From: Candidatus Omnitrophota bacterium
Lineage (GTDB): Bacteria > Omnitrophota > Gorgyraeia > Gorgyraeales > Gorgyraeaceae
Length of the DNA stretch: 64,000 nt
Reading direction: 5' to 3'
NCBI GenBank assembly: GCA_043814965.1
Contig: JBDRJN010000033.1
Location: forward strand, 1,379-65,378
The notes under the pieces: model-generated
What the model saw: only the letters and a program-made list of their open reading frames with translations
Told to the model about the DNA's origin: nothing
Database searches by the model: none
Shown here: positions 61,620 through 62,929 of the stretch, one piece after another
Layout: every line of letters starts with the position of its first letter
How positions within the stretch are numbered: position 1 is the stretch's first letter
Program-made: the position numbers and the translations under genes

Positions 61620-62563
61620 TGAAAGATATCCTTAAAAGACTAATTAAAAAAAGAAAACCAGATTCTCACAAAGGAGATTTTGGCCATGTATTTATCCTGG
61701 CAGGGTCTCGGGGCCTTACCGGCGCCGCGATACTTTCGTCCAGGTCAGCCCTTCGTTCCGGAGCTGGACTAGTAACTCTTGGCGTACCTAAATCATTAAA
61801 TATATCCATAGAGGCTGCACTTATAGAGGCCATGACATATCCTCTACCGGAAACAAAAGAAGGGAGTTTTTCAGTAAAGGCTGAAAAATATATCCTGGAA
61901 AAGATAGATACTGTAGATACCTTTATCATAGGGCCAGGGATCTCTTGTGATAATGAGACCAAAAGATTGGTCTTTAAGATATTGCCGAAAATAAAAAAAC
62001 CAATGGTGATCGATGCTGATGCGTTGAATATCATTTCGCAAGATATGGCTATTTTAAAAAAGATAACTCCGCCTTTTATTATTACTCCGCATCCAGGAGA
62101 GATGTCAAGGCTTGTCAAGAAAGACATGGCTTTTGTAAAAAAGAATAGATTACCCCTTGCAAAAAAAATAGCAAATCATTATAATGCTGTGGTAGTACTA
62201 AAAGGAAAAGATACTTTAGTAGTAAATAAAAGCAGATTTTATGTAAATAATACCGGCAATCCTGGTATGGCTACAGCTGGAAGCGGAGATGTCTTGAGCG
62301 GGATGATAGGGGGATTACTTGCTCAAGGATTGGGTGTATTTGAGGCTGCAGCCTTTGGAGTTTATTTACATGGTTTGGCAGGAGATATTGCAGCAAAAGA
62401 AAAAGGCGAGATAAGTTTAATAGCGAGCGATATTTTAGAGAGTATACCTAAAGCGATGATATTACTAACAAAGGGGCAGATACCCGAGTGGCCAAAGGGG
62501 TCAGACTGTAAATCTGATGGTTCGCGCCTACGGAGGTTCGAATCCTCCTCTGCCCACCAGTAG
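61619..62563 (+). CDS. ADP-dependent NAD(P)H-hydrate dehydratase (YjeF C-terminal domain). The ORF reads ~30 codons into tRNA-Tyr
   Basis: GDFGHVFILAGS...GSGDVLSG...YLHGLAGD motifs. The homologous domain ends near ...AMILLTK, but no stop codon occurs until 62563, inside the tRNA. Confidence 0.7.
   Translation: MKDILKRLIKKRKPDSHKGDFGHVFILAGSRGLTGAAILSSRSALRSGAGLVTLGVPKSLNISIEAALIEAMTYPLPETKEGSFSVKAEKYILEKIDTVDTFIIGPGISCDNETKRLVFKILPKIKKPMVIDADALNIISQDMAILKKITPPFIITPHPGEMSRLVKKDMAFVKKNRLPLAKKIANHYNAVVVLKGKDTLVVNKSRFYVNNTGNPGMATAGSGDVLSGMIGGLLAQGLGVFEAAAFGVYLHGLAGDIAAKEKGEISLIASDILESIPKAMILLTKGQIPEWPKGSDCKSDGSRLRRFESSSAHQ
62474..62559 (+). tRNA. tRNA-Tyr (anticodon GTA), long variable arm
   Basis: GGGCAGA/TCTGCCC acceptor, CCCG-AGTGGCCAAA-GGGG D-arm, TCAGA-CTGTAAA-TCTGA anticodon arm, 14-nt variable arm, GGAGG-TTCGAAT-CCTCC T-arm, encoded CCA. 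Same architecture as tRNA-Tyr in other bacteria. Confidence 0.85.
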
Positions 62564-62630
62564 TTTGATAGAGTTTAAGGTAGTGTAGGATTCGAATGGA
62601 GTCCGCTATATACGACGAATAGGAGTATAT

Positions 62631-62691
62631 GTTTAGCGGACGGATGGCCGACCCGCCCAAAGGCGGGCGCCGAATCCTCCTCTGCCCACCA
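62631..62691 (+). repeat. tRNA-Tyr-associated element: conserved module tttagcggacggatggccgacccgcccaaaggcgggcgc plus an exact 21-nt copy of the tRNA-Tyr 3' end (CGAATCCTCCTCTGCCCACCA)
   Basis: 62671-62691 is identical to 62539-62559. The preceding ~38 nt are near-identical to 62871-62908 downstream of tRNA-Thr. Confidence 0.7.
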
Positions 62692-62772
62692 AAAATTTTA
62701 TTATACAAAATTTTTGGTGAGGTCTCGTCCGTCAGTGAAACTGACGAGACGGACCCACCATGATTTTATTAA

Positions 62773-62848
62773 GCTGGCGTAGCTCAATAGGCAGAGCAAT
62801 TGATTTGTAATCAATAGGTTGGAGGTTCGATTCCTCTCGCCAGCTCCA
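62773..62848 (+). tRNA. tRNA-Thr (anticodon TGT)
   Basis: GCTGGCG/CGCCAGC acceptor, GCTC-AATAGGCA-GAGC D-arm, ATTGA-TTTGTAA-TCAAT anticodon arm, GGAGG-TTCGATT-CCTCT T-arm, encoded CCA. Confidence 0.85.
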
Positions 62849-62870
62849 TAATTTTAGAAGTAGAAGCTTA

Positions 62871-62929
62871 TATAGCGGACGGATGGCCGACCCGCCAAAG
62901 GCGGACGCCGATTCCTCTCGCCAGCTCCA
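62871..62929 (+). repeat. tRNA-Thr-associated element: the same conserved module plus an exact 21-nt copy of the tRNA-Thr 3' end (CGATTCCTCTCGCCAGCTCCA)
   Basis: 62909-62929 is identical to 62828-62848. Module tatatagcggacggatggccgacccgccaaaggcggacgc matches the Tyr-associated copy. Confidence 0.7.

Follow-up and report, generated by a model that had tools for sequence, protein, structure and literature searches.

RtT repeats have been a curiosity of the Escherichia coli tyrT transfer RNA (tRNA) operon since the late 1970s. In E. coli K-12 the 19-nucleotide (nt) end of tRNA-Tyr, AATCCTTCCCCCACCACCA, which starts at T-loop residue A58, was found to have four extra copies, one in the tyrT-tyrV spacer and three past tyrV at a 178-nt period. 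Ahead of every copy stands a complement of it, GGGGAAGGAT, which, by sequence and by the Rfam consensus structure, pairs with ATCCTTCCCC. The Rfam RtT model (RF00391) scored these four units at 133-137 bits, and the annotated rttR begins 8 nt past tyrV, its 3' terminus coinciding exactly with the CCA of the first copy. Two E. coli loci were inspected: RtT is present at tyrT/tyrV and absent after tyrU, with no RtT-like copy in the tyrU-glyT spacer of the tufB operon. According to PMC4986893, citing Bosl and Kersten (1991), rtT RNA is freed from tRNA operon transcripts by processing, and homologues appear on Northern blots; release as a discrete RNA is described there for E. coli and Pasteurellaceae. 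A discrete rtT RNA accumulates in E. coli (PMC4986893). rtT RNA has been linked to the stringent or stress response, and RtT homologues of Actinobacillus adjoin Asn and Lys tRNAs (PMC4986893; bioRxiv 10.1101/2024.07.17.603846). A tandem-GA motif has covariation support (PMC7657543). Here we describe two constructs of related design in a tRNA cluster of a Candidatus Omnitrophota bacterium. They lie in a stretch of 64,000 nt, hereafter the window (GenBank assembly GCA_043814965.1, contig JBDRJN010000033.1, positions 1,379 to 65,378). We think it probable, if well short of certain, that they are a complete and a truncated copy of an RtT-like non-coding element that rides in Omnitrophota tRNA operons, the RNA being co-transcribed, matured and shuffled by recombination.

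A complete and a shortened unit in the window

The cluster consists of tRNA-Tyr(GTA) at 62474-62559, tRNA-Thr(TGT) at 62773-62848 and, as its last tRNA, tRNA-Gly(TCC) at 62979-63052, all on the plus strand. Each was called by ARAGORN and by the Rfam tRNA model, with 62.9 bits for tRNA-Tyr, 73.8 bits for tRNA-Thr and a range of 63-74 bits over the three. An initial annotation, made from the sequence of the window, had proposed that tRNA-Tyr and tRNA-Thr are each trailed by a common module fused to a 21-nt copy of the tRNA's own end, and this proved correct. Both tail copies are on the plus strand, are identical to their tRNA at 21/21 positions and run from T-loop residue C56 to the CCA, with 0 nt of extra identity on either side. 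The tRNA-Tyr copy, CGAATCCTCCTCTGCCCACCA, occupies 62671-62691, 111 nt past tRNA-Tyr, and the tRNA-Thr copy, CGATTCCTCTCGCCAGCTCCA, occupies 62909-62929, 60 nt past tRNA-Thr. A 24-mer common to both modules, TAGCGGACGGATGGCCGACCCGCC, occurs in the window only at 62634 and 62873, and was found in none of 100 shuffles with up to 3 mismatches permitted. The Tyr and Thr modules differ by a 3-nt indel (tatatGTTtagcgg versus tatatagcgg), one loop base and one stem base. Neither a motif scan of the window nor R1, a covariance model of the Omnitrophota unit family, placed a unit behind tRNA-Gly.

The 38-nt module of the initial annotation is real and is common to both loci, but it is only the 3' third of a larger unit, and its two copies are not identical. 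The complete Tyr unit spans 62579-62691 (113 nt) on the plus strand. It opens with GGTAGTGTAGGATTCG (62579-62594), the 5' strand of the closing helix P1, about 20 nt past tRNA-Tyr. This strand is 81-83% complementary both to the 3' end of the tRNA and to the copy; it was detected in inverted repeats I1 and I2 and in the minimum-energy fold, covaries with tRNA identity, and resembles a degenerate acceptor 5' strand followed by a T-stem 5' strand and a T-loop. Next come junction J1/2, AATGGA (62595-62600; AA(T/G)(G/A/T)GA in A1, an alignment of twelve distinct units), and the P2 hairpin, GTCCGCTATATAC / GTATATGTTTAGCGGAC with loop GACGAATAGGA (62601-62641), which is supported by folds and covariation. 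Junction J2/3, GGATGGCCGA (62642-62651), was identified by A1 and by the motif scan and is the best-conserved single-stranded motif of the alignment, G(G/A)NTG(G/A)CCGA. The P3 hairpin CCCGCC-CAAA-GGCGGG with junction CGC (62652-62670) follows, seen in the fold and with covarying outer pairs, and the Tyr tail copy then completes P1 as its 3' strand and ends the unit with a 3' CACCA tail. In RNA terms, a core of AAUGGA, P2, GGAUGGCCGA, P3 and CGC is clamped by P1. The fold of 62579-62691 is a three-way junction of -51.5 kcal/mol with z scores of -4.1 to -5.0, in which P1 joins the complement to the 21-mer, P2 carries the loop GACGAAUAGGA and P3 is CCCGCC/GGCGGG.

Behind tRNA-Thr, the segment 62869-62908 (plus strand) contains the P2 3' strand TATATAGCGGAC, the J2/3 motif GGATGGCCGA, a P3 hairpin CCGCC-AAA-GGCGG and the CGC, with neither the P1 5' strand nor the P2 5' strand. 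Because the Thr copy lacks its 5' parts and folds no better than shuffled sequences (z -0.6), we regard it as a 5'-truncated remnant. In the window, R1 matched nothing but these two: it scored the Tyr unit at 115.8 bits and gave the Thr remnant 24 bits (E 1.3e-3). The initial annotation overlooked the RtT precedent, the larger unit and the Thr truncation.

The P2 5' strand of the Tyr unit, GTCCGCTATATA (62601-62612), is a perfect 12-nt complement of TATATAGCGGAC in the Thr remnant (62869-62880), and matches that strand better than its own partner, which is interrupted by an inserted GTT. On a shared transcript, the two sequences could pair with each other over a long range as an alternative. 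The conserved P2 loop, GACGAAUAGGAG (62614-62625 in the window, and the homologous loops), holds a Shine-Dalgarno-like AGGAG and is also found in a separate hairpin module that flanks tRNAs; its conservation suggests a candidate binding site for protein or RNA. A coding role for P2 was considered and dropped: in the window the AGGAG and an ATG lead into a 46-amino-acid open reading frame, the ATG is not kept in other units, and A1 contains no conserved open reading frame within the units.

Related units and their covarying fold

Exact words were too strict to retrieve the unit family. An exact scan of 185,579 species genomes with a 20-mer of the module returned 5 loci, of which two were real, both in one Omnitrophota metagenome-assembled genome (L002 and L003), and three were chance matches in GC-rich coding DNA. 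An exact 18-mer scan of metagenome contigs gave 76 loci, L064 being the only real one, and a gapped module pattern gave 3 matches in viral contigs, all by chance. In the two exact scans, chance matches in GC-rich DNA came to about 75 loci. An exact look-up of the window's AcpS protein matched no record. Retrieval by synteny, through the neighbouring Nnr protein (NAD(P)H-hydrate dehydratase), succeeded. The best homologue of the window's Nnr is 66% identical, its placement is Candidatus Omnitrophota, and syntenic tRNA clusters were obtained from the contigs of Nnr homologues. The gene order in these relatives is FtsH-FolP-CdaA-PdxJ-AcpS-Nnr-tRNAs-...-tuf-rpmG-tRNA-Trp-secE.

The resulting set comprises 12 distinct full units from 8 related Omnitrophota contigs, located behind tRNA-Tyr, tRNA-Thr and tRNA-Trp, with a family size range of 115-170 nt. 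Full units lie behind tRNA-Tyr in the window, L082, L094, L101 (two) and L102, behind tRNA-Thr(UGU) in L082, L099 and L102, and behind tRNA-Trp in L003, L064 (two) and L086. The pairing of a constant module with a target-specific end, which the initial annotation had singled out, is therefore real and general over 12 full units and three tRNA species, and the module is not unique to the two window sites, since units recovered from related assemblies have tails that match the upstream tRNA. The proposed search for empty sites was also productive, as compact sites exist in L091 (Tyr-17 nt-Gly-9 nt-Thr) and L086 (Tyr-13 nt-Gly). Only a complementary-strand remnant is present in L090 and L091. Tandem units were found in L064 (two, identical, with a 130-nt period) and L101 (two, diverged), and L086 holds 1.15 units, that is, one unit followed by the first 19 nt of another. 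The window has no tandem but one full unit and one remnant, at different tRNAs. L083 (5396-5538) carries a divergent chimeric unit that R1 scores at 33 bits; its core is different and larger, its 5' strand is of Thr type (GATAGAGGAATCG), and its tail is a tRNA-Tyr end with one mismatch (CGAATCCTTCTCTGCTCACCA).

The unit of L002 (19-120) has no tRNA-end copy. Its post-P3 sequence, ACTTAATGGTGCC, complements the genuine 3' end of the upstream tRNA, GGCACCAT, and a complete tRNA-Ala follows. Judging from this complementarity, the closing helix there would use the tRNA's own CCA end.

The copies are tightly tied to their host tRNAs. All 13 cognate copies, from the 12 full units and the window's Thr remnant, lie behind the tRNA on the same strand, match it at 20-21 of 21 positions and begin their identity at exactly C56; first units have 60-167 nt between tRNA end and copy start. 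Substitutions peculiar to the tRNA of a lineage recur in its copies, with T-stem CCTTC in the Tyr copies of L102 and L083 and CCTTTC in the Thr copy of L082. Because the copy carries such changes, copy and tRNA evolve in concert. The P1 5' strand of the second L101 unit reads UGGGUAGU-AGAGG-AUUCGAAU, compared with GGGCAGA...GGAGG-UUCGAAU in tRNA-Tyr. With a P1 5' strand like an acceptor 5' strand plus T-stem 5' strand plus T-loop, the unit resembles the top half of a tRNA; in sequence it looks like a tRNA top half with the P2/P3 domain in place of the T-loop.

Covariance modelling, proposed in the initial annotation, led to R1 and to a three-helix fold that covaries. The parts invariant in A1 are TCGAA..GAG, the junction G(G/A)NTG(G/A)CCGA and GCGCCGA(A/T)TCC. 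Structure was counted on A1 for P1, the base of P2, distal P2 and outer P3. Paired cells made up 96.5%, versus 34-47% when partners were slid by 1-3 columns, and 15 of 24 pairs were altered on both sides, versus a shuffle mean of 9.5. The covariation score was 0.498, compared with 0.20 for shuffled alignments (0/500 reached the observed value) and at most 0.16 for slid partners. In P2, double-sided changes affect 6 of 7 base pairs and 3 of 4 distal pairs, and the base of P2 occurs as GUCCGC/GCGGAC, GUCCCGC/GCGGGAC, GCCCCG/CGGGGC and GCUUUGC/GCAAAGC. P3 occurs as CCCGCC/GGCGGG, CCCU/AGGG, CUUCGCCC/GGGCGAAG and CUUCAUCC/GGAUGAAG, with outer pairs covarying from CCC/GGG to CTT/AAG. P1 is 94% paired over the 12 units and switches from UA to AU and from AU to GC with the tRNA species. 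The three-way junction was the minimum-energy structure in 7 of 9 units folded alone; in the other two, L094 and the second unit of L101, P1 and P3 form and the P2 strands pair elsewhere. Fold z scores were -3.0 to -5.0 in 8 of the 9 units and -1.5 in the ninth. All units are on the tRNA strand, G-U pairs account for 19 of 491, and 10 of 12 units are more stable when folded as the sense than as the antisense strand. As modelled, the G-U pairs and the sense-strand stability fit an RNA read from the tRNA strand.

No known RNA class other than tRNA and, weakly, RtT was matched when the units were searched with the families of Rfam 15 (ribozymes, riboswitches, small RNAs) at E<=10, and none of the units was called by ARAGORN or by the Rfam tRNA or transfer-messenger RNA (tmRNA) models. 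Hammerhead and hepatitis-delta-virus-like readings of the strings CUGACGAG/GAAAC and CGAAUGG were dropped because motif order or spacing did not fit and Rfam gave no match.

These data bear on the leading suggestion of the initial annotation, that the repeats are attL/attR scars of decayed tyrosine-integrase elements at tRNA T-loops and 3' ends. The units do share with att sites a direct repeat from T-loop to CCA, a block of identity that is reportedly typical of one class of tRNA-targeting integrases, and presence/absence polymorphism, with empty sites, among relatives. There is, however, no integrase, cargo or island; Nnr and a conserved gene downstream are the neighbouring open reading frames, and relatives keep the synteny. 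Only 111 and 60 nt separate the repeats in the window, and the intervening 90-150 nt of the units are not decayed DNA but a conserved, covarying, RNA-like structure. One core is used on several tRNA species, and the units behind Tyr, Thr and Trp each have their own matching complementary 5' strand, an arrangement that a fixed attP cannot produce. Further, the copies follow lineage-specific tRNA substitutions, and identity in the window stops exactly at the RNA end, CCA. We therefore consider att scars highly improbable.

Core identity, measured from junction to junction, shows no link to tRNA type. The Tyr and Thr units of L082, in one genome, have cores that are 96% identical, and high values were also obtained for window Tyr versus L003 Trp (91%), L099 Thr versus L102 Tyr (92%) and L094 Tyr versus L102 Thr (84%). 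In contrast, identity was 49% for window Tyr versus L102 Tyr, 55% for L099 Thr versus L102 Thr, and 51% for the two units of L102.

Such exchange raises the possibility that the core cassette is a selfish, non-coding parasite of tRNA genes, of no benefit to the cell, which spreads between tRNA loci and perhaps genomes by inserting into, or converting, the T-loop region, and so acquires T-arm flanks specific to the host tRNA. Core subtypes that are incongruent with tRNA type and at times near-identical across tRNAs or genomes speak for a parasite, as do patchy presence among close relatives, tandem arrays and chimeras, CGAAT-type T-loop sequence on both sides of the core, and the possible kinship with gammaproteobacterial RtT across phylogenetic distance. 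Yet no mobility enzyme was found nearby, and purifying selection on the junction motifs together with compensatory changes in three helices indicates that the fold matters. Exchange itself requires no dedicated copying enzyme, because ordinary homologous recombination between short conserved T-arm sequences suffices. We judge the selfish cassette quite unlikely. The initial annotation's mobile module that copies 21 nt of its target survives in part, as a pattern: cores have been exchanged between tRNA loci, but there is no sign of an active copying mechanism.

Relation to RtT and a proposed mechanism

The Omnitrophota units and RtT have the same architecture. Both are found directly behind or between the tRNA genes of an operon, and on the same strand as these. 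Both end in an exact copy of a tRNA 3' end, from T-loop to CCA, of 19 nt in E. coli and 21 nt in Omnitrophota, and both have a multi-helix structure that is closed by pairing of the copy with a complementary strand upstream. Tandem arrays occur in E. coli and in the Omnitrophota relatives, and the sequences resemble each other in collinear patches, among them CGAGCGAAGCGAG.. and CCCGAAGGGCGAAGCGC. The latter, an exact 17-mer, is common to E. coli RtT and the L086 unit at the same relative position when the tRNA-derived tail is removed. For some subtypes, tail-less local similarity to E. coli RtT reached z values of up to 7 versus shuffles; the window subtype showed no tail-less local similarity to E. 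coli RtT. The Rfam RtT model aligned over its full length, ending at the CCA of the Omnitrophota units, with 29.4 bits for L094, 18.4, 18.3 and 14.4 bits for others, and 14.2 bits (E 1.6) for the window Tyr unit.

There are also differences. Unlike RtT, the Omnitrophota core is a three-way junction with conserved junction motifs of its own, AAUGGA and GGAUGGCCGA, the units serve tRNAs of at least three kinds (Tyr, Thr and Trp), their core subtypes are interchangeable, and the host belongs to another phylum. Given the same architecture, sub-threshold scores, no reciprocal detection and some local similarity, we call the units RtT-like and possibly distant kin, and not demonstrated members of the family.

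The favoured reading, an RtT-like element in Omnitrophota tRNA operons, suggests the following course of events, modelled on E. coli rtT. The unit would be transcribed by read-through from the tRNA. Its 5' end would arise from the cuts that free the upstream tRNA, possibly with RNase P acting at the base of P1, and its 3' end from the trimming that also matures the tRNA, since unit and tRNA agree in their last 21 nt and the CCA. The product would be a stable RNA of about 115-170 nt with a 3' CCA. From the comparisons between units, the direct repeat of tRNA end and copy and the near-universal T-arm sequence at both core edges are likely substrates for recombination, which would yield tandem arrays, deletions to empty sites, chimeras and the exchange of cores between tRNA loci, and would also keep the copies identical to their tRNAs. 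Among the proposals of the initial annotation, a tRNA-3'-end mimic or processing signal comes closest to the evidence, with a design that matches E. coli RtT and an rttR that ends at the CCA of the copy.

Several points weigh against an RtT-like released RNA. Every Omnitrophota score with the RtT model is below the gathering cut-off of 45, so that homology to RtT is at most a possibility; in the other direction, R1 does not recover E. coli RtT at E<=10, and model R2, run with filters off, gave 5.9-9.2 bits on the four E. coli RtT units, about the same as its tRNA scores. The strings shared with RtT are GAAG-rich and, as such, could be convergent. Processing and release in Omnitrophota would follow by analogy with E. 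coli only. Covariation proves hairpins, not transcription, and hairpins in single-stranded DNA would be an alternative use of the same sequences. Since the unit has no intact T-loop, it would not pass for a tRNA with factors that recognize the tRNA elbow. Finally, the window's Thr copy cannot form the junction, as folded, and that copy is probably non-functional.

The loss of the T-loop also distinguishes the units from other tRNA-like structures. As in the tRNA-like domain of tmRNA and in minihelices, the closing helix is built from acceptor and T-stem sequence and has an NCCA end. Acceptor/T-stem helices with NCCA are substrates of RNase P, CCA-adding enzyme and 3' exonucleases. In the unit, however, the T-loop is split and paired, leaving no T-arm and no elbow.

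It might be argued that the units act solely in cis on the tRNA operon transcript, as a device for processing, stability or termination in which the complementary strand and the decoy copy would direct endonuclease cuts or stop 3' exonucleases. Rfam classes RtT as 'Cis-reg', the units are always within tRNA clusters immediately past a CCA, and stable hairpins that include the CCA follow them. Further, the 3' half of the genuine tRNA is itself a possible partner of the P1 5' strand (I1: 18 nt, 83% complementary), and no intrinsic terminator was predicted over 62300-63300, which makes read-through into the units plausible and counts for a role in cis. On the other hand, orthologous clusters do without units (L091 and the compact L086 site), conservation of the junction motifs and covariation in P2 and P3 go far past the needs of a simple exonuclease block, and in E. 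coli a discrete rtT RNA accumulates (PMC4986893). An exclusively cis-acting role is, in our judgement, unlikely. Both this and the selfish cassette differ from the favoured RtT-like reading mainly in whether the released RNA acts.

We also entertain, as a doubtful extension, that enterobacterial RtT and the Omnitrophota units form one ancient or horizontally spreading superfamily of 'tRNA-top-half-tagged' RNAs. The core of such an element would install itself in the T-loop of any tRNA copy, borrow its maturation signals and move between loci. If this were true, RtT and the units would represent a protein-less RNA element, tRNA-parasitic or tRNA-sensing, whose ends are re-tailored for each host tRNA.

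Neighbouring features and implications

Two further hairpins (plus strand) separate the Tyr unit from tRNA-Thr. An AU-rich hairpin, CACCAAAAATTTT / AAAATTTTTGGTG (62687-62719), was detected as inverted repeat I3, with 13/13 complementary positions, and in the fold; it includes the unit's CCA, and similar AU-rich hairpins trail the CCA ends of tRNAs or units in relatives. The third, GC-rich hairpin reported in the initial annotation between the two loci, followed by CACCA, is indeed present, at 62721-62755 with the tail to 62760, 12 nt before tRNA-Thr. Its last 7 nt, CCCACCA, are the tRNA-Tyr end. The two hairpins together are very stable (z -8.0).

Another recurrent module adjoins tRNAs and units, in either orientation, in L083 (4930-6470), L003 (minus strand, 7377-7130), L002 (100-330), L101 (6810-7130) and L102 (6700-7350). 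It consists of a CCA, an AU-rich hairpin with a GAAG-type loop, and then GATCCTGA..hairpin..GAAGGACC (or GTCCCGAGC..GCGAGGGAC). It contains tandem G-A mismatches and often the GACGAAYAGGA loop of P2. Since its reverse complement lies upstream of tRNAs, a long potential stem can bracket a tRNA. The third hairpin of the window (62721-62755) may belong to this class of module, in the upstream orientation. AT-rich, lineage-specific repeats also form long inverted repeats in tRNA spacers and around units, in L082 (5170-5270 and 5350-5430; ttgttag/ctaacaa), L086 (5090-5240; cagattac) and L094 (6566-6600 and 6725-6820; ttcgtcgttcgtg); these could be processing stems or simple repeat expansions.

Two clusters contain further irregularities. 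In L101, at about 7212-7250, the 5' half of a tRNA-Thr(UGU) stops within the anticodon loop (…TTTTGTAA) and unrelated DNA follows; this looks like a gene broken at the anticodon loop, possibly by integration or deletion. In L083, an 84-amino-acid open reading frame with a GIY-YIG domain (5969-6223) lies within the tRNA cluster, between tRNA-Gly and a second tRNA-Thr(UGU), flanked by the recurrent AU-rich/GA-mismatch hairpin modules. It could be a homing-type nuclease tied to the rearranged cluster.

Upstream in the window, the Nnr open reading frame (61619-62563, 314 amino acids) has no stop before tRNA-Tyr and spans the entire tRNA gene. Some Nnr homologues are 312-316 amino acids long (P0011, P0073), and the majority are 278-295. 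An 86-amino-acid minus-strand open reading frame across the tRNA was rejected as spurious. Elsewhere in the window, tRNA-Pro(CGG) (4234-4311) is followed 10 nt further on by a tRNA-like copy (4322-4401). The copy repeats the 3' part of tRNA-Pro without change in its final 33 nt and retains the acceptor 5' strand, with T for C1. Its D arm has decayed, and in place of the anticodon arm it has a GC hairpin whose loop is 3 nt long (TCCGCC-TTG-GGCGGA). ARAGORN made no call there, and the Rfam tRNA model gave 22.2 bits at 4326-4395 (cut-off 29). This is another construct than the Tyr and Thr units on the same theme, an anticodon-less companion with the tRNA's 3' end.

The overall design of the units, a tRNA-end copy with a complementary strand, is that of the E. 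coli tyrT RtT and is not a new type of system. What is new is a covariation-backed variant of an RtT-type tRNA-operon element in another phylum, at several tRNA species and with exchangeable cores. For annotation, the units call for caution, as they create partial tRNA duplicates that resemble integrase att sites. A single-locus oddity has become a comparative problem, with a data set of 12 units and the model R1 for tests of the fold, and the units predict RNA 3' ends at the duplicated CCA. In sum, since the same design is present in an unrelated, uncultured phylum, at three tRNA species and with exchangeable cores, the 'tRNA-end tag' looks general and portable, and not an accident of one locus.

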